Of a DNA stretch of 64,000 nucleotides, positions 3,814 to 39,153 are shown piece after piece. Each line of letters starts with the position of its first letter. The stretch's first letter is position 1. Location: contig CALWOU010000002.1 of NCBI GenBank assembly GCA_944383245.1, positions 6,417-70,416 on the forward strand, written 5' to 3'. The notes under the pieces are model-generated. The model was not told the origin of the DNA and searched no databases. It saw only the letters and a program-made list of their open reading frames with translations. The translations under genes were made by a program, and so were the position numbers. This DNA is from an uncultured Clostridia bacterium (lineage in GTDB: Bacteria; Bacillota; Clostridia; Christensenellales; UBA1242).

Positions 3814-4635
3814 ATGAAAGAATTAAATAATTTTGTATTCTTTCCGTCATTTTTGGAATGTGTTAAAAACGCGCCGGAAAACGAGCGCGCAGATATAGTT
3901 TATTGTATTGTTCAATATGGTATATATGGTAAAGTGCCGAAAAAGACGAGTTAAAGTTTTAAAATGATATTTCCGGCAATTAAGCCAATAATTGATGCTT
4001 CTGTTAAAAGATATAATTCACAGGTTGAAAATGGCAAAAAAGGTGGAAGACCGAAAAAAGATAAAAACCTAAATGAAACCCAAATAAAACCCAAAGATAA
4101 CCCACTTATAAGCCAAAATGAACCAAATATAAACCTAATAGAAACCCAAAAGAAAGGTAGTAATAAATTATTAAAAACCGAACAAAAACCCAACCAAAAC
4201 CTTAATAAGGAAAAGGAAAAGGATAAGGATAAGGAAAAGAATAAGGATATAAAAGAAGAACAACATCAAAAAGAAATAAATAAAGAAAAAGATTTTGATG
4301 TTGATGATGTTGATTTAGAAAAGAAAACTTTTTATTTCGAATGTTTAAATGGAAAGTTAAATAAAGTTGCTGATATTTTGGACACTAAAATTCATACGAG
4401 ATTAGAACAAATTATTTCATACATATTCGAAAAATCTTCTTTTATTGTTTCAAATGAAAAAATATCTTCTAATTTAATTTTTTCCAAAATTGTTTATTTA
4501 TTTGCCGGTACTGATGAAGAAATAGTCAACAGATTTAATGAAATATTTTTATCTATTGATAATGCTGAAAATGTTAGTAATAAACTTAACTATTCTGTAT
4601 CTACGTTATATCGTTATGCTTGTAATAATGGTTAA
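3814..4635 (+). pseudogene. Phage/plasmid-type gene (FxFxxSF...NGKKGGRPKK family) split by one in-frame TAA
   Basis: ORFs 3814..3954 (46 aa, my translation) and 3964..4635 are in the same frame and separated only by the TAA at 3952-3954. The joined product reads ...GIYGKVPKKTS*SFKMIFPAIKPIIDASVKRYNSQVENGKKGGRPKK, which looks like one continuous conserved N-terminal domain. Confidence 0.55.
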
Positions 4636-4646
4636 ATGGAGTGTTT

Positions 4647-5156
4647 ATGAATTTGTATTTGAAAGGTTTAAATTATTGTTATGTTGCTTATAGAGATGAT
4701 AAGTATAAATTTATTGAGTATGTTGCAGATACAAAAAAAGAACTAGCCAATGAATTAAAAATATCAATTAGTGCCTTATCTCATCTAATAAATCGAAAGG
4801 TGCAGTTTTCGAGAGGTCTAAAAATTGAAAGAGTTCAAATTGCTGATTTTTGTTTTGCAATTTATAAAAATATTCCAACAAATATTGACAATATTGTATT
4901 TATAACTAGAAGTTTTGACGCAATAGTTAAAAAATTTAAGATTAGTAAGATTTGTTTGTCAAAACTTTTAAAATTCTTTTTCTGCCCAAATTCGTATAAA
5001 CTGCGGGTAGATTGCAAAAAGCAATATTTTAATATCAACGATAAATATTTTGTCGGTCTTTTAGATTTGTTTGATTTAGATAGTCAAGATTTTCAAAAAG
5101 TTAATTGTAAACTTTTAAATGTTAATTATGAAGATATCGATGAAAAGTTATATTGA
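4647..5156 (+). CDS. Hypothetical protein with a probable HTH (ELANELKISISALSHLINRK)
   Basis: The ATG at 4647 follows GGAG, in frame with the track ORF 4641..5156. It contains an HTH-like segment. Confidence 0.6.
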   Translation: MNLYLKGLNYCYVAYRDDKYKFIEYVADTKKELANELKISISALSHLINRKVQFSRGLKIERVQIADFCFAIYKNIPTNIDNIVFITRSFDAIVKKFKISKICLSKLLKFFFCPNSYKLRVDCKKQYFNINDKYFVGLLDLFDLDSQDFQKVNCKLLNVNYEDIDEKLY

Positions 5157-5160
5157 CAAC

Positions 5161-5195
5161 TTTTGTTTTAAAATGAGTCGCCAATAACTCAAATT
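5161..5195 (+). repeat. 35-nt islet-internal repeat, copy B
   Basis: It matches 3432-3466 at 34/35 positions and starts 5 nt after the stop of ORF 4647..5156. Confidence 0.7.
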
Positions 5196-5274
5196 AGAGG
5201 CGAGATAAAATAAATACTAATGAATTATTTTTAAAATGGTTAAGTTAATTGACAGCGGACAAATACTAAGGGTT

Positions 5275-5316
5275 GTAAGGGCCGCGGTCCTTACGGGGTA
5301 AAGGGGCTCCCCCTTT
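5275..5316. other. Two adjacent GC-rich hairpins in the islet's non-coding block
   Basis: The first is GTAAGG-gccgcggt-CCTTAC (5275-5294). The second is AAAGGGG-ctc-CCCCTTT (5300-5316), followed by TCAACAACAAC. TCAACAACAA recurs at 5408-5417. Confidence 0.5.
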
Positions 5317-5514
5317 GTCAACAACAACTAATAAAGCCTATTTTATGTGATGAGTCTATTCATCCGAAAATTATTCGTAACCGAGATAAAGTGTAACGTG
5401 TGCTTTATCAACAACAAAAAAAGTTCGCTTAAAACTACACTAAGACGAGCGTTAGCGCAAACTAACTTTGCTTGTAATATTTAGATAATCCTAATTTTTT
5501 GCGAACAGCGTGAG

Positions 5515-5556
5515 CAGTCGGCACAATTACCTTTCTTGATGTAATTGTGCCGACTG
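5515..5556. repeat. Perfect 16-bp inverted repeat (long hairpin 1) upstream of int
   Basis: CAGTCGGCACAATTAC, a 10-nt loop, then GTAATTGTGCCGACTG, followed by AATTTTATCAAAATTG. Confidence 0.8.
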
Positions 5557-5644
5557 AGGGAATTTTATCAAAATTGCCCCTAAAAAAATTAAAAAATGCT
5601 TTCGTGCGTGCGTGGAAGCAAGAAATAAAAAAACGAACAAAGTG

Positions 5645-5686
5645 AGTTCGGCACAGTTCTCTTTTTTGATGTAATTGTGCTGACTG
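5645..5686. repeat. Degenerate second copy of the long hairpin (hairpin 2)
   Basis: AGTTCGGCACAGTTC...GTAATTGTGCTGACT has the same loop core (TTGATG) and the same trailing AATTTTATAAAAATTT. It lies 130 bp downstream of hairpin 1. Confidence 0.65.
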
Positions 5687-5751
5687 ACACAATTTTATAA
5701 AAATTTGGCAGTAAAAATATATCTTGCAATAGATAAAGAAACTAAAAAAAT

Positions 5752-6900
5752 ATGAATTTAGATAAAGATAATATTTCAAAATTACTTTCTAATTCAAAGT
5801 TTTTAGAAAGTTTAAATACATTGATTGAGTCGTTGCATACAGATAATGCGACAATTCTTTCAAACTCAAACAATTTAAAATATAAGGGAATTAAAGTTCA
5901 TAAAAACATTATTTCAAATTCATATTATGCAAGATTTCGCAAGAACGGAAAACAACATTTTGTTTCTGCTAAAACTAAAAAACAGTGTTATGAAAGGTTA
6001 AAAGACAAGTATATTCAAGTTGAAAAAGAAGAAAAGTTTAATAATAATTCAATGACTTTTATTGATTGGTATTATAAATGGCTAGACTTATATAAACTAA
6101 ACAAAGTTAAACAGGCCACTATTGAAGACTATGAAAAGTCATTAAAATATATACCGGACCATTTTAAAGAAACTAAATTTGTTTTAATCTCTGTTGAAGA
6201 TATTTTAATTGTTTTAAATTCAATAGAAAGACCAAGAACACGACAAAAAGTTTTTGAGTTAATGTCAATGATGTTTGATAAAGCAGAAAAGCACGATATT
6301 ATAACTAAAAATGTTATGTTGAGAGTTGAGAAACCGAAACACGAAAAACAAAATAGCCAATCACTAACAAAAGAACAGCAAGAAGAATTTATTTTTGTTT
6401 GTAAAAATGTTTTGCATGGCGATTATTTTCTTCTATGTTTATATCAAGGACTTAGGAAGGGCGAAGCGCTTGCTATAACCCGTGAAGATGTCGATTTTAA
6501 AAATAAAACTTTAAGAATAAACAAAAGTATAAATAAAAATAATCGTTTCGACACAACAAAGAACAAACAAAGTAATCGAATAATGCCGTTGTTTGATAAA
6601 ACAATACAAGAGTTGTTAAAATATCAAAATATACCTAGCGAAAAGCGAATTTTTAATTTTTCACCTAAAATACAACGCAAAACATTAAGTAAAATTAATG
6701 AAAAATTAGTATTTCATGTTAAAACGAAAGATTTGCGAACTACTTTTATAACTCGATGTCAAGAGAATAATATACCTGAATTTGTTATACAAAGTTGGGT
6801 AGGTCACAAAATAGGTAGTAAAGTCACAAGCTCAGTTTACACCAAACATAATCCGGAAATTGATTTTAAATATATAAATATATTTAATTCAATAATATAA
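5752..6900 (+). CDS. int: Tyrosine-type site-specific integrase
   Basis: It has GLRKGEALAI (Arg box), a KDLRTTFIT-type box and a C-terminal GHKIGSKVTSSVYTKH (His...Tyr). It sits directly next to the tRNA attachment site. Confidence 0.88.
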   Translation: MNLDKDNISKLLSNSKFLESLNTLIESLHTDNATILSNSNNLKYKGIKVHKNIISNSYYARFRKNGKQHFVSAKTKKQCYERLKDKYIQVEKEEKFNNNSMTFIDWYYKWLDLYKLNKVKQATIEDYEKSLKYIPDHFKETKFVLISVEDILIVLNSIERPRTRQKVFELMSMMFDKAEKHDIITKNVMLRVEKPKHEKQNSQSLTKEQQEEFIFVCKNVLHGDYFLLCLYQGLRKGEALAITREDVDFKNKTLRINKSINKNNRFDTTKNKQSNRIMPLFDKTIQELLKYQNIPSEKRIFNFSPKIQRKTLSKINEKLVFHVKTKDLRTTFITRCQENNIPEFVIQSWVGHKIGSKVTSSVYTKHNPEIDFKYINIFNSII

Positions 6901-27113: not shown

Positions 27114-28745
27114 TTATTTGCTGTCTTTTAAGCCGACGGTTTCAAGATAGACGCGGTCGTTTTGCTTACTCAAAACGCAATCCTCAATATAATATCCATT
27201 TCTAATAAATTGCATATTGCCTTTTTGCTTTAATGCGAATGGTTCGATATATGAAACGTGTTCTTCCATTGAATTTGGGTTGATGATTTTATCTAGCATT
27301 CCGTGTTCGTAAACTTCGCCCTCTTTTAGTAGATCGTGGAATTTGCGCGTTCTAACTTTTTCAGAGTGTTTAACGCTTAGCCAATGAATTGTGCCTTTTG
27401 GTTTTATTCCTTGCTCTTTTGTGTCATACGCAATTGAACATTTTAAATAATCAATTTCACCTGCGCTATTTTTAACAACTTCATCGCACTTAATAACGTA
27501 TGCGCCCATTAAGCGCACATAGCCATTAGGTGTTAGGCGGAAAAATTTAGGAGTTGGATTTTCCATAAAATCTTCGCGTTCGATATATAGTTCGTTTGAA
27601 AATTTAACGGTGTGTTTTTTGCTTTTTTCAATTGTTGGATTGTTTGAAATCTCAACATTCTCAGTTTTGTTGCTATCGTAATTTGTTAATATAACTTTAA
27701 TAGGGTCAAGAACAGCCATAACTCGCATTGCAGTTTTATTTAGTTCTTCACGAATGCAAGCCTCTAAAATGTGTGGTTGAACAATGCTATTTGATTTTGC
27801 AACACCAATACGCGTGCAAAACTCTTTGATTGCGCTTGCAGTGTAACCTTTTCTTCTAAATCCGGCAAGGGTAGGAAGGCGAGGGTCATCCCAACCATCC
27901 ACATATCCGCCGTCCACAAGTTCGATAAAATAACGTTTTGAAATAACAGTTCCCGCGATATTCAGTCTTGCAAACTCAATCTGGCGCGGTTTAACTCCCG
28001 TTATTAACCTACAATTATCTACGAACCAATTATATAGCGGGCGGTGGTCCTCAAACTCAAGGCTACAAAGAGAGTGAGTGATTCCTTCGTGCGCGTCGCT
28101 AAGTGGGTGCGCAAAATCATACATTGGATAAATGCACCACTTGTTTCCCTGCCTGAAGTGAGGAACGTGCATAATGCGATAAATTACAGGGTCGCGCATA
28201 TTGATATTAGGGCTTGCCATATCTATTTTTGCGCGCAAAGTTTTTTCTCCGTCGGCGAATCTCCCTGCTTTCATCTCTTCAAACAAACGCAAATTTTCTT
28301 CAATTGACCTGTTTCTATATGGACTTTCTTTGCCTGGTTCGGTTAGAGTTCCGCGAGTTTGAGAGATTTCATCGGCAGAAAGTTCGCAAACATATGCTTT
28401 GCCTTGCTTGATTAAATCTATCGCACAGTCGTATAAAAAATCATAATAATCACTTGCGTAATACAAATTTTTCCACTTAAAACCAAGCCATTTAATATCG
28501 TCCATCAATGCTTTAACATAATCTTCACTTTCTTTGCTTGGATTGGTGTCGTCCATTCTAAGATTAGTGTAACCTTTAAACTTTTCAGCCGTTAAAAAGT
28601 CAATACATATTGCCTTGCAGTGACCGATATGCGTGTATCCATTAGGTTCAGGCGGAAAACGAGTGACTATCTTTTTCAATCCTTTTTCCTTAATATCTTC
28701 AACTATTGCCTGTTCAATAAAATTTGATGGTGTTATATTTTCCAT
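27114..28745 (-). CDS. glnS: Glutamine--tRNA ligase
   Basis: Class I HIGH (GYTHIGH) and KMSKS-like (VISKR) motifs. Overall GlnRS-type sequence (FPPEPNGY..., RLPTLAGFRRKG). Confidence 0.92.
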   Translation of the reverse strand: MENITPSNFIEQAIVEDIKEKGLKKIVTRFPPEPNGYTHIGHCKAICIDFLTAEKFKGYTNLRMDDTNPSKESEDYVKALMDDIKWLGFKWKNLYYASDYYDFLYDCAIDLIKQGKAYVCELSADEISQTRGTLTEPGKESPYRNRSIEENLRLFEEMKAGRFADGEKTLRAKIDMASPNINMRDPVIYRIMHVPHFRQGNKWCIYPMYDFAHPLSDAHEGITHSLCSLEFEDHRPLYNWFVDNCRLITGVKPRQIEFARLNIAGTVISKRYFIELVDGGYVDGWDDPRLPTLAGFRRKGYTASAIKEFCTRIGVAKSNSIVQPHILEACIREELNKTAMRVMAVLDPIKVILTNYDSNKTENVEISNNPTIEKSKKHTVKFSNELYIEREDFMENPTPKFFRLTPNGYVRLMGAYVIKCDEVVKNSAGEIDYLKCSIAYDTKEQGIKPKGTIHWLSVKHSEKVRTRKFHDLLKEGEVYEHGMLDKIINPNSMEEHVSYIEPFALKQKGNMQFIRNGYYIEDCVLSKQNDRVYLETVGLKDSK

Positions 28746-33962: not shown

Positions 33963-35777
33963 ATGGATATTAGAAACATTGCAATAATTGCGCACGTCGA
34001 TCACGGTAAAACAAGTTTAGTAAACGCCTTGCTAAAACAAGGCGGAGTTTTTAGAGATAACCAAGAAGTGCAGGATAGAGTTATGGACTCAAATGCATTG
34101 GAGCGCGAACGTGGAATCACGATTTTAAGTAAAAACTGCTCAGCATATTACAAAAACACAAAAATCAATATTGTAGACACCCCAGGACACGCAGACTTCG
34201 GTGGCGAAGTGGAACGTGTGTTAAAAATGGTTGACGGAGTGTTGCTTGTGGTAGACGCGTTCGAAGGTCCAATGCCACAAACTCGTTTTGTGCTTGAACA
34301 CGCACTTGCACTAAACTTAAAAGTGGTTATTGTTATCAATAAGATTGATAGACCAGATGCAAGGTTAGACGTGGTTGGCGATGAAGTGCTTGAACTTATG
34401 CTTGACCTAAATGCAACAGACGAGCAATTAAATAGCCCAATCATATACACAAGCGCACGCGCTGGCACAGCAACAACTGATTACAAAGTGCCTGGCACAG
34501 ATATGTCTGTGCTATTTGAAGCAATAATAAATCACATCGACCCGCCAAAAATGAACGTGGACGCACCTTTTTCAATGCTTATTTCTTCAACCGAACACAA
34601 TGATTATTTGGGTAAACTTGCGGTTGGAAAAGTCGAAAGCGGAACAGTTAAATTAAATCAAACATTGTATATCAAAAATTATTTTGACGAAAACAAGCAT
34701 TACACAGGTAAAGCGGTAAATATTTTCAACTTCAACGGTTTAAAACGTGACCCTATTGAAGTTGGCACTGCTGGTGATATTATTTGTATTGCCGGTATTC
34801 CTGATATTACTATTGGTGACACTGTTAACGAAACAGCAGATATGCCTGCTATTCCTTTTGTTAAAATTAGCGAGCCAAGTGTGGAAATGACATTTATGGT
34901 TAACGATAGTCCGTTCGCAGGAAAAGAAGGTAAATTTGTAACAAGCCGTCACCTAAAAGAGAGATTATATAAAGAAGCGGTTAAAGATTTATCTTTGCAA
35001 GTTAGCGATGGCGACACGGCCGACCAATTCAAAGTGCGCGGACGTGGCGAAATGCACCTTAGTATTCTTATTGAAAACATGCGTAGAGATGGTTACGAAT
35101 TCCAAGTTAGCCGTCCAAGAGTTTTGTATAAATACATTGACGGCGTTAAGTGCGAACCAATAGATAAAGTGGTTATTGACGTTCCAGAAGATGCGGTAGG
35201 AACAGTTATGCAATCAATGGGTATTAAAAAAGGTGAATTGATTAGTATGACTCCTATGGGTAGCCGAATGAGATTGCAGTTTAAAGTGCCAAGCCGTGGA
35301 CTATTTGGCTATAAATCTCAGTTACTAACCGACACAAAAGGTGAAGGTGTTATGTCTAGCGTGTTTGATGCTTATGAACCATATAAAGGCGAGATTGAAG
35401 GAAGAAATTTTGGTTCCCTAATTAGTTATGAAACCGGCGAAGCTATAACTTACGGTCTATTCAACGCACAAGGTAGGGGAAGATTGCTTGTTCGCCCAGG
35501 CGATAAGGTTTATATGGGTCAAGTGGTTGGAGTGAACCCAAAAGGCGACGATATTGTAGTGAACGTTTGCAAGAAAAAGCAACTTACGAACACACGTTCA
35601 AGTTCTAGTGACGAAGCATTAAGGTTAACACCTATTCAAGATATGACGCTTGAAGAAGCCCTTGAATTTATTGCAGACGACGAACTTGTGGAAGTAACAC
35701 CAAAGTCAATTCGTATTAGAAAAGCAATTTTGGACCACCAATTGCGCGCAAAAGCAAGAAAACCAGTTGTTGAATAA
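33963..35777 (+). CDS. typA: Translational GTPase TypA/BipA
   Basis: G1 AHVDHGKTS, G3 DTPGHADF and G4 NKID motifs, with a BipA-type C-terminal domain. Confidence 0.95.
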   Translation: MDIRNIAIIAHVDHGKTSLVNALLKQGGVFRDNQEVQDRVMDSNALERERGITILSKNCSAYYKNTKINIVDTPGHADFGGEVERVLKMVDGVLLVVDAFEGPMPQTRFVLEHALALNLKVVIVINKIDRPDARLDVVGDEVLELMLDLNATDEQLNSPIIYTSARAGTATTDYKVPGTDMSVLFEAIINHIDPPKMNVDAPFSMLISSTEHNDYLGKLAVGKVESGTVKLNQTLYIKNYFDENKHYTGKAVNIFNFNGLKRDPIEVGTAGDIICIAGIPDITIGDTVNETADMPAIPFVKISEPSVEMTFMVNDSPFAGKEGKFVTSRHLKERLYKEAVKDLSLQVSDGDTADQFKVRGRGEMHLSILIENMRRDGYEFQVSRPRVLYKYIDGVKCEPIDKVVIDVPEDAVGTVMQSMGIKKGELISMTPMGSRMRLQFKVPSRGLFGYKSQLLTDTKGEGVMSSVFDAYEPYKGEIEGRNFGSLISYETGEAITYGLFNAQGRGRLLVRPGDKVYMGQVVGVNPKGDDIVVNVCKKKQLTNTRSSSSDEALRLTPIQDMTLEEALEFIADDELVEVTPKSIRIRKAILDHQLRAKARKPVVE

Positions 35778-35972
35778 AAACAATCTTTTAAATTTTACCT
35801 TTTTCCTGCTTTTACGAAGGTTTAAAAACAAATATTTAGTGTTAAATCAATTTTCAAATAACCACAAAATGTGGTATAATGCTAGTAGATTAAAATTATA
35901 TGTAGGCTTTAATAACAACAAATAAAATTATATCTGTACGTTTAACAATTAAAAAAAACAATAAGGAGAGAT

Positions 35973-36233
35973 ATGCGTCCAACAAACGACACTTTTAAAA
36001 ACATTATGAAAGTAGGTAAGCGAATTGGAATTACTATTCTAATTTGCATTCCTATTATGGTTGCGTTTGGATATCTAACTAGAAATGTGATAACTGCAGA
36101 TTGGGCGCAAATTCTTTGTTTTATGGCTATAATGGCGGTGGCGGTAACCATTGAAGAACTTATATCTCGTTATAGAGAAAAGAAGAAAAAAGTTGAAATT
36201 GAAACCGAACCAAAACGCGATGTATATAAATAG
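35973..36233 (+). CDS. Small membrane protein (two TM helices, basic C-terminus)
   Basis: 86-aa ORF with an AAGGAGAG ribosome-binding site. A TGGTATAAT extended -10 lies at about 35868-35880. Confidence 0.6.
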   Translation: MRPTNDTFKNIMKVGKRIGITILICIPIMVAFGYLTRNVITADWAQILCFMAIMAVAVTIEELISRYREKKKKVEIETEPKRDVYK

Positions 36234-36238
36234 TCTCA

Positions 36239-36317
36239 GTTTATGTGGCTTTCCTCAGGTGCCAAAGCAATATCGTCAAGCCACACAAACTTCGCCTCGA
36301 CCCGCGGGGGCATAAGG
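36239..36317 (+). repeat. Structured GC-rich repeat, copy 1 (13-bp stem plus conserved tail), 79 nt
   Basis: The stem is GTTTATGTGGCTT/AAGCCACACAAAC, with one mismatch at position 5 and a 26-nt loop. The tail is TTCGCCTCGACCCGCGGGGGCATAAGG. Confidence 0.8.
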
Positions 36318-36360
36318 TTTAATTAAAATTTATGCAGTTGAAATCTGAACGTAAACATTC

Positions 36361-36388
36361 TTCGCATTGACCCGCGGGGGCTATAAGG
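36361..36388 (+). repeat. Structured GC-rich repeat, copy 2 (tail only)
   Basis: TTCGCATTGACCCGCGGGGGCTATAAGG. The following roughly 25 nt also resemble the sequence after copy 1. Confidence 0.75.
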
Positions 36389-36475
36389 ATTTATTGAAAT
36401 TAATGTAGTTAATCAAAAAAATTTTTATCAATTAGTGTAAAAGAAGAAATTATAAACTTTTAACAAGGAGATTAT

Positions 36476-37063
36476 ATGAAGCTTTTAAAAGATATTGATT
36501 GGAAACCAAATAGCGAAGGAGATATTTGTGTTAGAAGTGAATTTAAAAAAATAATTCCAGCACCACTTTTAAAAGCTGTTTTAATTTTATATGATTTAAA
36601 CATTCGAACTGTTTCGTGTGGAATGGGAGACGATTTTGGAATATCTATTGACTATGATTGTTTAAGTGAAGAAAATAAAAAGATTGCAGATGAATACATG
36701 AAAAGAAAAAAGATGGAACTTTCTAAGCCGTGCGCGCATGCACCAGAGAGAAGATTTCGTCTTGGTGTTAAAATTGATGAAAATAAAGTTGGTGAAAAAC
36801 AAGCGGAAAAATTGATACTAAAAGAATTAGAAGATTTAGGATTGAAAAAGCAGGACGTTATGTATGGATTTAGTTCAATGCAAGATAAAATCCGCCAATG
36901 GAAAGATGTTGATTTAGACGTGACGGATGATATACTTATAGATAGTTATAAAGAAGTGTATTTCGTTGATGAAAATAATGTTGTATGGGAAAATGAAGAG
37001 TTGTATAATAAACATATAGCATATGAGAATGAATTAAATATTCAAAATAATCAAACAATTTAA
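36476..37063 (+). CDS. Hypothetical protein (195 aa) lying between the repeat copies
   Basis: AAGGAG ribosome-binding site. No motif was recognised. Confidence 0.65.
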   Translation: MKLLKDIDWKPNSEGDICVRSEFKKIIPAPLLKAVLILYDLNIRTVSCGMGDDFGISIDYDCLSEENKKIADEYMKRKKMELSKPCAHAPERRFRLGVKIDENKVGEKQAEKLILKELEDLGLKKQDVMYGFSSMQDKIRQWKDVDLDVTDDILIDSYKEVYFVDENNVVWENEELYNKHIAYENELNIQNNQTI

Positions 37064-37087
37064 ATTTAGGAAATAAAGGAGTGTGTT

Positions 37088-37132
37088 ATGGCTGATAAGA
37101 AAGCAAAAATTCAACCAAATGATTTAGAATGA
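37088..37132 (+). other. Mini-ORF that duplicates the first 14 codons of dnaB (MADKKAKIQPNDLE-stop)
   Basis: AAAGGAG ribosome-binding site. 38/42 nt are identical to 37242-37283, and all 4 differences are synonymous third-position changes. The TGA stop lies 4 nt before the copy 3 stem. Confidence 0.6.
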
Positions 37133-37136
37133 TCTC

Positions 37137-37215
37137 GAGAAATCCACGTTCCGTTTAGAACTCCGTTAGGCTCTACACGTGGATATCTCTCGCCTTAATC
37201 CGCGGGAGCATAAGG
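37137..37215 (+). repeat. Structured GC-rich repeat, copy 3 (13-bp stem plus conserved tail), 79 nt
   Basis: The stem is GAGAAATCCACGT/ACGTGGATATCTC, with one mismatch at position 5 and a 27-nt loop. The tail is TCGCCTTAATCCGCGGGAGCATAAGG. Confidence 0.8.
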
Positions 37216-37241
37216 ATATAGAAATTTAGTAAGGAGGATAT

Positions 37242-38675
37242 ATGGCAGATAAAAAGGCAAAAATTCAACCCAATGATTTAGAAGCAGAGCAAAGTTTGCT
37301 TGGCGCGCTGTTTTTAAGTAAAGATGCGTGCGCGGACGTGTTTCCAAACTTAAACGCAAATGATTTTTATTCAGGGGCGCATAAAAAGATATATCAAGCG
37401 ATGCTAGATAATTATTTTAAAGACGTTGCGATTGACTACATCACGGTTAGCAAAGTGTTAAGTGATAAGGGCGAGTTGGAAGAAGTTGGCGGGCTTGAAT
37501 ATATCACCGATTTAACGCAATATGTTCCAAGTGCGGCAAACTATAAGTATTATGTTGACATCATTAAAAATGATAGTATTTTGCGCCAAATCATTGAAGC
37601 GTGCCAAAACACTATTAATGAAGCATTTGAAAATAATAGTGCGAGTGAAGTGTTAGAACGCGCCGAAAAATATATTTTTGATATTTCTCAAACGCGTAGG
37701 ACAAACGACCTTGAACACATTAAAAAAGGTGTTGCCGAAGCGATTGATTTAATGGAAAAAATATCAATCGACCCTAACGCAAACACAGGTATTAAAGTTG
37801 GTTTCCCAACCCTTGATAAAATCACAAACGGCTTTAAACCTGGCGAACTTATCATTATTGCGGCGCGCCCTGGTATTGGTAAAACCACGTTAGCCGTAAA
37901 CTTTGCAATAAATTCTGCAATTAAGCACAAGAAAACTATTGCAATGTTCGACCTTGAGATGAGCGCACTTCAAGTGGCGCAACGTTTTATATGTTCCACC
38001 GGTCGCGTTCCTATGGACGCAGTTAAAGGCGGAAGCAAAGATAATAACGTTTGGTCAACCTTATTTGAAACAAAGAAAATTTTGGAAGACGCAAATATTT
38101 ATGTTGACGACACTACAACAATAACCCCTGCTGAAATTTTGTCTAAATGTAGAAAATTAAAAGCACAATCTGGGCTAGATATGGTTATTATTGACTATTT
38201 GCAACTTATGAAAAGCGAGCGCGCAAATAAGGACGGAAATCGTCAACAAGAAGTTGCCGAATTAACACGTTCAATCAAACTTGCAGCGCGTGAACTAGGT
38301 GTTCCAATTTTGTTACTATCTCAATTAAATCGTGAAAGCGAAAAACGTGCAGATAAAACTCCGCAACTAAGTGATTTAAGAGAATCTGGTTCAATCGAAC
38401 AGGACGCAGATATTGTTATGTTTATTGCAGACATCGCAAGCGAAAACGCAAAAGAAGATTCAACTGATGATGCACTAGATTATTCGCTTGTTATTGCAAA
38501 ACATAGAAATGGTATGCGTGGCACAATTCCAATTAAGTGGAAGAGTGAGTTCACTCAATTCTACGAACCTGGAAAGGACACATTATACACCAAAAACACA
38601 AGCAAAATTCAAAAAGGCGACGTGTTAACTCCAGTTGAAAATTCAGAAATAGACGACATTTTCAGCGAAGAATAA
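37242..38675 (+). CDS. dnaB: Replicative DNA helicase DnaB
   Basis: N-terminal PNDLEAEQSLLGALF, Walker A ARPGIGKTTLA, Walker B VIIDYLQLM and the SQLNRESE arginine-finger region. Confidence 0.96.
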   Translation: MADKKAKIQPNDLEAEQSLLGALFLSKDACADVFPNLNANDFYSGAHKKIYQAMLDNYFKDVAIDYITVSKVLSDKGELEEVGGLEYITDLTQYVPSAANYKYYVDIIKNDSILRQIIEACQNTINEAFENNSASEVLERAEKYIFDISQTRRTNDLEHIKKGVAEAIDLMEKISIDPNANTGIKVGFPTLDKITNGFKPGELIIIAARPGIGKTTLAVNFAINSAIKHKKTIAMFDLEMSALQVAQRFICSTGRVPMDAVKGGSKDNNVWSTLFETKKILEDANIYVDDTTTITPAEILSKCRKLKAQSGLDMVIIDYLQLMKSERANKDGNRQQEVAELTRSIKLAARELGVPILLLSQLNRESEKRADKTPQLSDLRESGSIEQDADIVMFIADIASENAKEDSTDDALDYSLVIAKHRNGMRGTIPIKWKSEFTQFYEPGKDTLYTKNTSKIQKGDVLTPVENSEIDDIFSEE

Positions 38676-38721: not shown

Positions 38722-39153
38722 ATGTTATTTGTTGATAATTTGGGAAATAGTTTAGACTTTGACGTTGTCGGTTATGAATTTGAAGAAAATAAAAATGCGA
38801 AAGATTTTGATTGGGACGCAAATTGGTTAACAATAAAAATAGTTTACGATAAAGATGATTATAAACAAGAGTATTATTCTTCATGCATTCTAACAATGGA
38901 GTTAAAAGATTTCGTTTCAGATTTAGAAAAACTAAAAAATGGTGTGGTTGATAGTTGTGAACTTAACGCGTTTGAACCATATCTTAAAATGAGTGTTAAA
39001 AAAGATAAAGATAATTATATTTTCAATATAGAATTTATTTATAATAGGTCAACAGGCGAAAAACTAACTTTCACTTCAAATTTAAGCAACACCGAATTTG
39101 ATTATATCTTTAAAGAAATGAAAGAATTATCAAAAAAATATAAGGTAAGATAA
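38722..39153 (+). CDS. Hypothetical protein, possibly an orphan WapI-like immunity protein
   Basis: 143 aa with the pattern LDFDVVGYEFEENKNAKDFDWDANWLTIKI ... FEPYL. I recall this from small toxin-immunity proteins, so the assignment is from memory only. Confidence 0.35.
   Translation: MLFVDNLGNSLDFDVVGYEFEENKNAKDFDWDANWLTIKIVYDKDDYKQEYYSSCILTMELKDFVSDLEKLKNGVVDSCELNAFEPYLKMSVKKDKDNYIFNIEFIYNRSTGEKLTFTSNLSNTEFDYIFKEMKELSKKYKVR

Follow-up and report, generated by a model that had tools for sequence, protein, structure and literature searches.

A second dnaB start in an uncultured Clostridia bacterium is probably the remnant of a strain-variable tandem duplication

The replicative helicase gene dnaB is preceded, in the 64,000-nucleotide stretch of Clostridia DNA analyzed here (the window), by a second copy of its own ribosome-binding site and first 14 codons. 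This upstream copy (U) is probably a dnaB 5′ end left behind where the two units of a strain-variable tandem duplication meet, and the exclusively silent differences between U and the true start of dnaB (copy D) are best attributed to swapping among working dnaB alleles, not to a new regulatory or mobile system. The locus is, in our judgment, an ordinary structural polymorphism, though a clear example of one, and nothing in it requires a regulatory role for the mini-ORF that U forms. The window represents ~7% of a genome of roughly 0.9 Mb (about 0.8-0.9 Mb; PMC12306168), and its features around dnaB are listed in Table 1.

The mini-ORF opens with ATG at 37088-37090, runs for 14 sense codons to 37129 and closes with TGA at 37130-37132; its product, MADKKAKIQPNDLE, is the same peptide that is encoded by dnaB codons 1-14 (37242-37283). 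The two copies are offset by 154 nt, leaving 111 nt between them, and a repeat search aligned 37087-37129 with 37241-37283 at 91% identity. Each has a separate Shine-Dalgarno sequence (SD; AAAGGAG at 37075-37081 for U, TAAGGAGG at 37230-37237 for D). They differ at four nucleotides (GCT/GCA, AAG/AAA, AAA/AAG and CCA/CCC), every one synonymous, and since synonymous changes make up only 21 of the 126 single-base changes possible in the 14-codon stretch, four out of four is a non-neutral outcome (P ~8 × 10−4 under unconstrained drift). A preliminary description of this DNA had reported both the second start and its silent-only divergence, and both are borne out, as is its placement of the upstream TGA 4 nt (TCTC) before a 13-bp stem, the first arm of which (37137-37149) pairs with 37177-37189. 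A further stretch that had been counted as shared upstream of the first SD, AAATTTAG, is present in the window but belongs to the 3′ end of the inserted 195-aa gene and is missing from the upstream copy in strains without that gene.

Table 1. Features of the dnaB locus, in window coordinates.
Feature	Coordinates	Strand	Basis
Promoter-like site, extended −10 (TTTTCA/TTCAAA ... TGgTATAAT)	35851..35880	+	10/12 consensus matches with TG
Small membrane protein gene, 86 aa	35973..36233	+	Stop TAG 36231-36233 is the start of unit 1
Duplication unit 1 (stop codon, c1, c2, long leader, SD, ATG + 14 codons of U)	36231..37129	+	Collinearity with unit 2
Element c1, full length	36231..36324	+	Covariance model, 83 bits, E = 9.5e-21
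Element c2, 5′-truncated	36325..36395	+	Covariance model, 40 bits; comparison with full copy in L002
195-aa gene, strain-variable insert nested in unit 1 leader	36476..37063	+	Presence/absence among alleles
Copy U, SD + 14-codon mini-ORF	37075..37132	+	Duplicated dnaB 5′ end upstream of duplication junction
Duplication unit 2 (junction TGA, c3, short leader, SD, dnaB codons 1-14)	37130..37283	+	Collinearity with L216
Element c3, full length	37130..37222	+	Covariance model, 107 bits
dnaB, 477-aa replicative helicase, ATG 37242	37230..38675 (including SD)	+	Domain matches

The dnaB product has clear domain matches (DnaB N-terminal, E = 1e-31; DnaB_C, E = 2e-90), and the small membrane gene directly upstream of it is conserved in relatives in the order bipA - membrane gene - dnaB. 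Judged by its sequence, the promoter-like site is the likely start of a membrane-gene-to-dnaB transcript, and no terminator-like site was found between these two genes. The 195-aa gene is present in 5 of 39 alleles of the locus; its product has no Pfam or PHROGs family match, and only 11 homologues were found. Several small accessory genes vary around dnaB, and the other variable gene inserts showed no shared junction motif at their edges.

The spacer between the membrane gene and dnaB holds three copies of a structured element composed of two hairpins, P1 and P2. In c1, the P1 arms lie at 36238-36251 and 36278-36291 and P2 at 36289-36310 (7 bp, 8-nt loop), followed by CATAAGG (fold z-score −2.4). 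Copy c2 has lost P1 through its 5′ truncation and retains P2 at 36359-36380, while c3 has both P1 (37137-37149/37177-37189) and P2 (37187-37208), again followed by CATAAGG. Copy c3 shows compensatory changes between strains (ATCCACGT/ACGTGGAT versus ATTCACGT/ACGTGAAT), P1 covaries (both sides changed in 8 of 8 pairs), and P2 has an invariant U·G pair; fold energies of the c3 region are no better than those of shuffled sequences (z = +0.4 and +1.4). The motif CCGCGGGRGC occurs three times in the 64-kb window against 0.02 expected, every time at the dnaB locus, which confirms that the three repeat copies noted earlier are genuine. Covariance model searches matched three sites in the window, none of them outside this spacer, two in the locus of a sister lineage (L089) and none in 85 loci from relatives. 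An additional match at 27688-27772 (E = 0.02) was dismissed as chance, being on the minus strand, inside an ORF (27114-28745) and devoid of the element motifs. Against Rfam 15, the window yielded only two tRNAs at gathering thresholds, leaving the element unmatched, and a permissive search of 35700-37400 (E up to 10) gave nothing credible. Viral contigs contained no hits to the element; in a metagenome scan with the pattern TCGCNTYRAYCCGCRGGRGC, which proved too degenerate, all 120 matches listed were attributable to chance (G+C content of ≥50%, none followed by TAAGG). Sequestration of the SD was considered and rejected: the invariant CTC at the left end of the element pairs with GAGG in one minimum free energy fold, but over just 4 bp and in a fold that does not outperform shuffles.

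Thirty-nine alleles of the dnaB locus (the window included) were compared, all from independent metagenome assemblies of one species, a chicken-gut Clostridia close to Candidatus Onthoplasma faecipullorum. Three forms were found, at frequencies that are rough because alleles were sampled by DnaB protein variant and not at random: a single dnaB start behind a long leader (type A, 15/39), a single start directly behind the element (type B, 7/39) and the duplicated form seen in the window (type C, 17/39). All 17 type C alleles have the junction GAA TGR TCTCGAG in common, and in all of them U has an SD, an ATG and the identical 14-residue peptide, with no frameshift or missense change despite up to seven silent differences between U alleles. 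The codon that follows U is TGA in 6 and TGG in 11 of them, the latter shifting the stop from 37130 to the TAA at 37196-37198 in the P2 loop of c3, and the mini-ORF accordingly has either 14 or 36 codons. Some public gene calls read through TGA, so that L004 has a 36-aa leader ORF and L002 a 95-aa membrane gene, which raised the idea that UGA encodes Trp and that TGA and TGG are synonymous here. This was rejected: the window contains ORFs of 2,032, 1,014 and 852 codons without TGA and uses TGG for Trp, and, of its 40 long ORFs, 4 terminate at TGA and have short extensions. Outside the species, relatives with 75 to 88% DnaB identity have a compact bipA - membrane gene - dnaB arrangement without element or duplicate (membrane gene-dnaB gap of 14 to 115 nt), and the sister L089 (94%) has two elements, one dnaB start and no U.

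That the upstream copy arose by tandem duplication is argued for by the architecture of the type C alleles, which consist of two collinear units, each with a stop codon, element, leader, SD and ATG plus 14 codons, so that the duplicated interval extends from the membrane-gene stop to dnaB codon 14. In L220, unit 1 (219 nt) and unit 2 (154 nt) are 85% identical over ungapped columns and align collinearly over their full length (score of 129, versus 50.6 ± 7.5 for shuffles) in the order stop codon, element, ATAAGG, leader pieces, SD and 14 codons. Unit 2 of the window is likewise 92% identical to, and collinear with, the whole interval from membrane-gene stop to codon 14 in the single-copy allele L216. 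At the junction, GAA (dnaB codon 14) is joined to TGR TCTCGAG, which aligns with the stop-proximal flanks TAG TCTCAG and TGA TGCTCAG found after the membrane gene, making the TGA at 37130 the positional homologue of the membrane-gene stop; the sequence TGATCTCGAG on the left of c3 aligns with TAGTCTCAG, which borders c1 on the side of the stop. Among type B alleles, the element of L216 begins with 34 nt that match the first L002 element and continues as c3, while that of L221 is c1 fused to the tail of c3. By their sequence, these alleles are chimeras of two element copies, as would be expected from deletions between repeats.

A history consistent with these forms would begin with expansion of the membrane gene-dnaB spacer in this species, so that it came to hold direct repeats of the two-hairpin element. 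The exact founding event, which we infer, would have been an unequal crossover or a replication slip that placed dnaB codon 14 directly before the membrane-gene stop position. The product would be two head-to-tail units, the second continuing as full-length dnaB translated from its own strong SD and the first ending as a mini-ORF of 14 codons (TGA, as in the window) or 36 codons (TGG). The arrangement is a common polymorphism, and recombination between direct repeats may keep deleting parts of it: element-by-element crossover would leave a single start behind one chimeric element, and U-by-D crossover would leave a single start behind a long leader. Exchange with single-copy alleles and gene conversion between U and D would keep refreshing U. 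With its good SD and its position on the presumed membrane-gene-to-dnaB transcript, U is probably translated, and its effect on dnaB is probably small or nil. As counterpoints, the exact coincidence of the junction with a stop-codon position is convenient if the breakpoint was random, an additional internal deletion is required for the short leader of unit 2, and all 17 copies of U are intact.

The preliminary description had offered purifying selection on a translated leader as one cause of the silent-only divergence, and the allele set points elsewhere, to variant codon sets that serve other strains as actual dnaB starts. One of these, U2 (GCT AAG ATA), is identical, SD flank included, to the working dnaB start of L238, and U2 codons also start dnaB in L216, L219 and L221. 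Conversely, D codons are found behind the long leader in L215 and L218, where a U2-type SD is combined with D-type codons, and in five alleles (L217, L227, L237, L242 and L243) U equals D save for codon 13 or 14. D is itself variable (Da, Db and Dd). The window and L002 differ at 44 dnaB positions, all synonymous, while strain divergence elsewhere is ~2.8% of nucleotides, which indicates that U is not neutrally drifting in isolation and that exchange is possible. Differences between U and D would then be synonymous because both are, or recently were, working dnaB starts, and selection on the mini-ORF peptide becomes unnecessary. The earlier alternative, that one copy was imported from a different dnaB allele, therefore survives in part: U and D do come from a reshuffled pool of diverged functional 5′ alleles, but import by an element that inserts into dnaB with a replacement start is not supported, given that the structured element was found at this locus only, the lack of a recombinase and the two collinear units. 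The U of the window itself (U1: GCT GAT AAG AAA ... CCA) was absent as a working dnaB start among the 39 alleles, its closest real starts differing by three to four synonymous sites, and a minimum of one silent change (AAG, codon 4) occurs in U alone, a hint of constraint.

U may instead be a functional leader ORF. Its translation, which would stop 4 nt short of P1 in one form and continue across P1 as far as the P2 loop in the other, would remodel the hairpins and tune dnaB translation or mRNA stability, with the peptide or its codons under purifying selection. The intact SD, ATG and peptide of all 17 U copies in the face of their silent variation, the improbability under drift of four silent differences out of four, the genuine covarying structure of P1 together with the invariant U·G of P2, and the commonness of the duplicated form (17/39) are all in keeping with it, as is the variation of the extreme DnaB N-terminus between species, which implies that constraint inherited from dnaB is not very strong there. 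We nonetheless consider it unlikely. U is missing in 22 of 39 alleles whose DnaB is the same or almost so, in the 94% sister and in every relative at 75 to 88% DnaB identity; the TGA/TGG polymorphism, which switches its length between 14 and 36 codons, shifts the stop with respect to P1 and P2; U2 serves another strain as its actual dnaB start; and neither a terminator nor a convincing SD-sequestering alternative fold was found in the c3 region. A 14-residue peptide, moreover, never exits the ribosome tunnel, so that being identical to the DnaB N-terminus would serve no obvious purpose. The data can be explained without purifying selection on a translated leader, and the population sample argues against it. 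Also unlikely is the compound proposal that the two-hairpin element is an undescribed cis-acting RNA for dnaB mRNA processing, stability or translation in Onthoplasma and that the duplicated form is kept frequent because translation of the mini-ORF as far as the element, or into it, sets the helicase level.

Insertion of a small mobile or integrative element, consisting of c3, an SD and 14 dnaB codons, that targets the dnaB 5′ end and leaves attL/attR-like copies is very improbable, although a stop codon adjoins the left end of the element in both settings, behind the membrane gene and behind U, relatives lack the block, small accessory genes come and go around dnaB, and D appeared near-constant while U varied among the first contigs examined. 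With more alleles D proved to vary too. Covariance matches are confined to this spacer in the window and in L089, with none in the 85 relative loci, and a scan of viral contigs gave no hit; no recombinase, transposase or terminal inverted repeats were found, and just 111 nt separate the copies. The product of the neighboring 195-aa gene is without a Pfam or PHROGs match, and the gene is situated outside the U-D interval; type B alleles have c3 and its leader immediately behind the membrane gene with no duplicate; and collinearity of the units over their whole length is not predicted by insertion. The suggestion that the 36.24-37.22 kb block is a single captured cassette holds only in part, the 195-aa gene being a separate strain-variable insert and the remainder of the block duplicated local spacer. 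Ribosomal bypassing of the phage T4 gene 60 type would make U a second route to DnaB, constrained as coding sequence, with take-off at GAA 37127-37129 and landing at GAA 37281-37283. The matching codons, the stop directly after the take-off codon in the window, the hairpin just downstream and the SD-like sequence before the landing site all fit, but matching codons are a trivial result of duplication, 11 of 17 duplicated alleles have TGG in place of the stop, the gap is 151 nt versus 50 nt in gene 60, most alleles lack U, and bypassing adds nothing to a gene with its own strong SD and ATG; we give it almost no credence. An assembly chimera of two coexisting strains can be discounted to a similar degree. 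The DNA comes from a metagenome, and one sample can contain diverged alleles (ERZ24773442 yields both L004, type C, and L232, type A), but the identical junction recurs in 17 contigs (16 besides the window) from several projects, samples and assemblers (ENA ONAT22-1, ENA BRZ and five separate Logan runs), the repeat is just 43 nt with mismatches, below typical assembly k-mers, and copies 154 nt apart lie inside one read pair. The concern over a strain-mixture artefact raised in the preliminary description can therefore be put to rest.

Tandem segmental duplications arise by unequal or short-homology recombination and are subsequently lost via recombination between direct repeats. The dnaB locus resembles them in its head-to-tail collinear units with an end-to-start junction, its polymorphism in the population, its chimeric single-copy alleles and its signs of gene conversion between copies. 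Unlike the usual case, the unit is very small (about 150 to 900 nt) and ends 14 codons into an essential gene, leaving a complete ribosome-binding site and mini-ORF upstream, and the form is not transient, being found in diverged strains in several U/D combinations. As in leader-peptide or upstream-ORF control (trp-type attenuation, erm/cat leaders, translational coupling), the main gene is preceded, on the same presumed transcript, by a short ORF that has a separate SD and ends beside or inside a conserved hairpin; however, there is no terminator/anti-terminator pair or conserved stop position, U is missing from more than half of the alleles and all relatives, and its peptide copies the N-terminus of the gene itself instead of a sensor sequence. 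REP/BIME palindromes, which act as mRNA stabilizers, are likewise hairpin repeats between cotranscribed genes, in gene orientation, that vary in copy number between strains and serve as recombination substrates, but every copy of the present element found in the window (~7% of the genome) and in the sister sits in a single spacer, the element comprises two hairpins, of which P1 has a long loop, and an associated RAYT-type transposase was not seen. Integrative elements that bring a replacement for a gene end, as at phage or island att sites, also leave a duplicated gene end flanking extra DNA with the gene intact; at dnaB, in contrast, there is no integrase or element body, the ATG is precisely where the duplicated segment starts, and what separates the copies is duplicated local spacer. 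In T4 gene 60, where the bypassed gap is 50 nt, matched codons similarly flank a gap that opens with a stop and a hairpin, whereas here the stop varies between alleles, the gap has three times that length and the downstream ORF starts independently.

A duplicated start with silent-only differences may look as if it strongly favored a selected leader peptide or a targeted mobile element, and some caution is warranted in reading such patterns: population data indicate that they can come from an ordinary tandem duplication that exchanges with functional alleles. The two-hairpin element is absent from Rfam, lineage specific and well supported by covariation, and would constitute a modest new RNA motif if a role in dnaB regulation were true. 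For this lineage, the duplication documents unusually high plasticity immediately in front of a gene essential for replication, in a reduced and otherwise compact genome (about 0.8-0.9 Mb).

The dnaB gene of the window encodes a genuine replicative helicase, in which a domain search found DnaB and DnaB_C domains. The first 14 residues of this protein are identical to those of a mini-ORF that starts 154 nt upstream. In a repeat search of the window the two segments (U, the upstream copy; D, the start of dnaB itself) were 91% identical, and all four differences between them were synonymous (4/4), as expected from the preliminary description of a duplicated ribosome-binding site and first 14 codons. 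Only 21 of the 126 single-base changes possible in this stretch are synonymous, giving P ~8 × 10−4 under unconstrained drift, so that silent-only divergence does demand an explanation. An assembly artefact (a chimera) is excluded, as the same junction recurs in 17 contigs from different studies.

Between the small membrane gene and dnaB lie three copies (c1, c2 and c3) of an element composed of a long hairpin, P1, and a shorter one, P2. DnaB variants in the 90%-identity protein cluster of the window were looked up across several independent projects, which gave 39 in-species alleles of this spacer (L-numbers denote contigs or alleles from other assemblies). Type A (15 alleles) has element remnants, a ~95-nt leader and the SD GAAAGGAG ahead of full-length dnaB. 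Type B (7 alleles; gap 56 to 179 nt) runs from the membrane-gene stop through one element or P2 alone and a short leader with SD TAAGGAGG into dnaB. Type C (17 alleles, including the window) comprises the left part of type A through codon 14, TGA or TGG, TCTCGAG..., c3, a short leader and dnaB. Because an identical junction is common to all type C alleles (17/17), a single origin would be most economical.

Feature coordinates (window positions unless another contig is named)
Feature	Position	Strand	Remarks
Promoter-like site, good	35851-35880	+	precedes membrane gene
Membrane gene	35973-36233		~85 aa
c1	36231-36324	+	covariance-model match
c2, 5'-truncated	36325-36395	+	covariance-model match
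c3	37130-37222	+	covariance-model match
P2 hairpins	36289-36310, 36359-36380, 37187-37208	+	in c1, c2, c3
195-aa gene	36476-37063	+	inserted between AAACTTTTA and U SD
Mini-ORF SD	37075-37081	+	AAAGGAG; sequence inspection
Mini-ORF (U)	ATG at 37088, 14 sense codons to 37129, TGA 37130-37132	+	encodes MADKKAKIQPNDLE
dnaB start (D)	SD 37230-37237, ATG 37242	+	SD TAAGGAGG
AAAYTTTAG motif	36396-36462, 37062-37069; 37222-37229
Accessory genes near dnaB	38722-39153; L002 5455-6093; L215 3422-4102; L219 512-1030		strain comparison

In the single-copy allele L216, the stretch from the membrane-gene stop through dnaB codon 14 is, over its whole length, collinear with window positions 37130 to 37283, at 92% identity. 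In L220 the two units of a single allele could be aligned along their full length: unit 1, bounded by the membrane-gene stop and U codon 14, against unit 2, bounded by the junction codon and D codon 14 (score 129 versus 50.6 ± 7.5 for shuffles). Each starts at the stop-codon position and proceeds through the element, ATAAGG, pieces of leader and the SD to the 14 codons. The sequence on the left of c3 (TGA TCTCGAG) has its homologue after the membrane-gene stop (TAG TCTCAG or TGA TGCTCAG). By unit collinearity and flank homology, U is the start of dnaB as it stood in the first unit, severed past codon 14 by the junction. Type B alleles arose by recombination between two copies of the element: L216 follows the first element of an L002-like allele over 34 nt before switching to c3, and in L221 c1 is fused to the c3 tail at GCATAAGG. 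Direct-repeat deletions in a type C allele would yield exactly such forms. The AAAYTTTAG motif recurs just 5' of each SD and where the 195-aa gene insert ends on its 3' side. It is also similar to GATTTAGAA (dnaB codons 12 to 14) and may have supplied the short homology for several rearrangements.

Three codon sets occur at U (U1 in 9 alleles, U2 in 7, Ud in 1) and three at D (Da, Db, Dd), in five combinations. The working dnaB start of L238 is the same as U2, including the 24-nt SD flank, and the U2 codons also begin dnaB in L216, L219 and L221; U equals D except at codon 14 in L217, L237, L242 and L243, and except at codon 13 in L227. Since U2 is a real start elsewhere and near-identical U/D pairs exist within alleles, both positions share one pool of functional dnaB 5' alleles, exchanged by recombination or conversion. 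L215 and L218 join a U2-type SD to D-type codons, as a U-by-D crossover would. Strain divergence is sizeable (44 differing sites between window and L002 dnaB, 44/44 synonymous). A U drifting in isolation would have gained missense changes, and exchange with functional alleles explains their absence. U1, the set of the window, was not found as a working dnaB start among the 39 alleles; its nearest real starts (L225 type and the 94% sister L089) are 3 to 4 silent sites away, and one change or more, including AAG at codon 4, occurs in U alone. The weak signal that remains may point to an allele outside the sample or to a degree of constraint. The initial suggestion of import from another dnaB allele holds for the import and exchange of alleles, but not for the mechanism, which, the units being collinear, is tandem duplication.

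The mini-ORF is probably translated, judging from its good SD and its position on the operon transcript, and nothing requires it to be functionally important. A regulatory role, including the translated leader under purifying selection first envisaged, is unlikely: more than half of the alleles lack the mini-ORF though their DnaB is the same or nearly so, and its stop is TGA in just 6 alleles, all close to the window, and TGG in 11, where the ORF reads on across P1 as far as a TAA in the loop of P2 (37196 to 37198), 36 codons in all. Fold and terminator searches found neither a terminator nor an SD-sequestering fold better than shuffles. Still less probable are gene 60-like bypass, given an unconserved stop and an independent dnaB start, and the other proposal of the preliminary description, a mobile element inserting into the dnaB 5' end with a replacement start, which conflicts with the lack of mobility or a recombinase and with collinearity over whole units. 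Public gene calls on some contigs of the window species read through the in-frame TGA (36-aa leader ORF, L004 3847-3957; 95-aa membrane-gene products, L002 3275-3562 and L223 843-1130), probably through a Mycoplasma-type code applied by the pipeline. The long ORFs of the window show TGA as a stop and TGG for Trp; TGA is a normal though rare stop codon in this genome.

The 90%-identity cluster that contains the window DnaB includes a protein named Candidatus Onthoplasma faecipullorum, of a genus placed in Christensenellales. Onthoplasma genomes are reduced, at ~0.8 to 0.9 Mb (PMC12306168). Related species (75 to 88% DnaB identity) keep the order bipA, small membrane gene, dnaB, with a membrane gene-to-dnaB gap of just 14 to 115 nt in which neither repeat nor duplicate start was found; L089 has two repeat copies directly after the membrane-gene stop, yet one dnaB start. 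These compact relatives and the single start of L089 mark the expanded spacer as young and lineage-specific. The membrane protein, of unassigned family, lies immediately 5' of dnaB across Christensenellales-like relatives (L009-L014, L090-L094), its gene often abutting or overlapping bipA and 14 to 36 nt from dnaB, a conserved pairing. In L218 (1068-1436) the gene call gives 122 aa, apparently because a rearrangement of the spacer lengthened the ORF into it. L093 (86% DnaB identity) has a second gene with a DnaB_C domain (4114-6219; 788 aa) two genes downstream of dnaB.

The 36.24 to 37.22 kb block, initially viewed as a possible captured cassette, is composite: c1 and c2 are local repeats, and the 195-aa gene is a strain-variable insert, present in only 5 alleles (window, L003, L007, L008, L227). 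Its product has 11 homologues and no Pfam or PHROGs match or recognized family. Small accessory genes vary around dnaB between strains of the species, including a WapI-like immunity gene carried by the window, MBL-fold proteins (212 or 226 aa) matching the Pfam Anti-Pycsar_Apyc1 family, and a NUDIX gene that separates bipA from the membrane gene; their borders showed no common junction motif.

The repeat core CCGCGGGRGC was found three times, solely at this locus (0.02 expected in 64 kb), with c3 between U and D. In an alignment of eleven distinct full-length copies, drawn from the window species and L089, P1 has changes on both sides at 8/8 core pairs, with paired cells at 95% overall versus 80% in shuffles and 32 to 57% with partners slid. 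P2, a 7-bp hairpin 3' of P1 (YYYUCGC, 8 nt, GCGGGRR, then CAUAAGG), has one compensatory pair (C-G to U-A); its invariant U.G pair and 8-nt loop (CUYRAYCC) occur in 11/11 compared copies. In c3 the 5' arm of P2 shares bases with the outer 4 bp of P1, which makes the helices partly mutually exclusive, and between strains the c3 stem changes from ATCCACGT/ACGTGGAT to ATTCACGT/ACGTGAAT via a G.U intermediate. Given the G.U pairs and an orientation matching the genes, we favor a structure acting at the RNA level; with a promoter-like site before the membrane gene and no terminator found between it and dnaB, the elements are probably intercistronic RNA structures. Rfam gave no match. A covariance model built from the eleven copies detected only c1 to c3 in the window, two copies in L089, and none in 85 loci from other relatives; a scan of viral contigs found none. 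Within the 64 kb of the window and these loci, the element appears tied to a single locus rather than dispersed as a mobile element would be. One marginal match (27688-27772, minus strand; 17 bits, E 0.02), within a long ORF (27114-28745) and with none of the element's motifs, was treated as chance. The duplicated start represents an ordinary polymorphism, a tandem duplication well illustrated here, in a spacer prone to recombination; the one item that may be new is the lineage-specific two-hairpin element.
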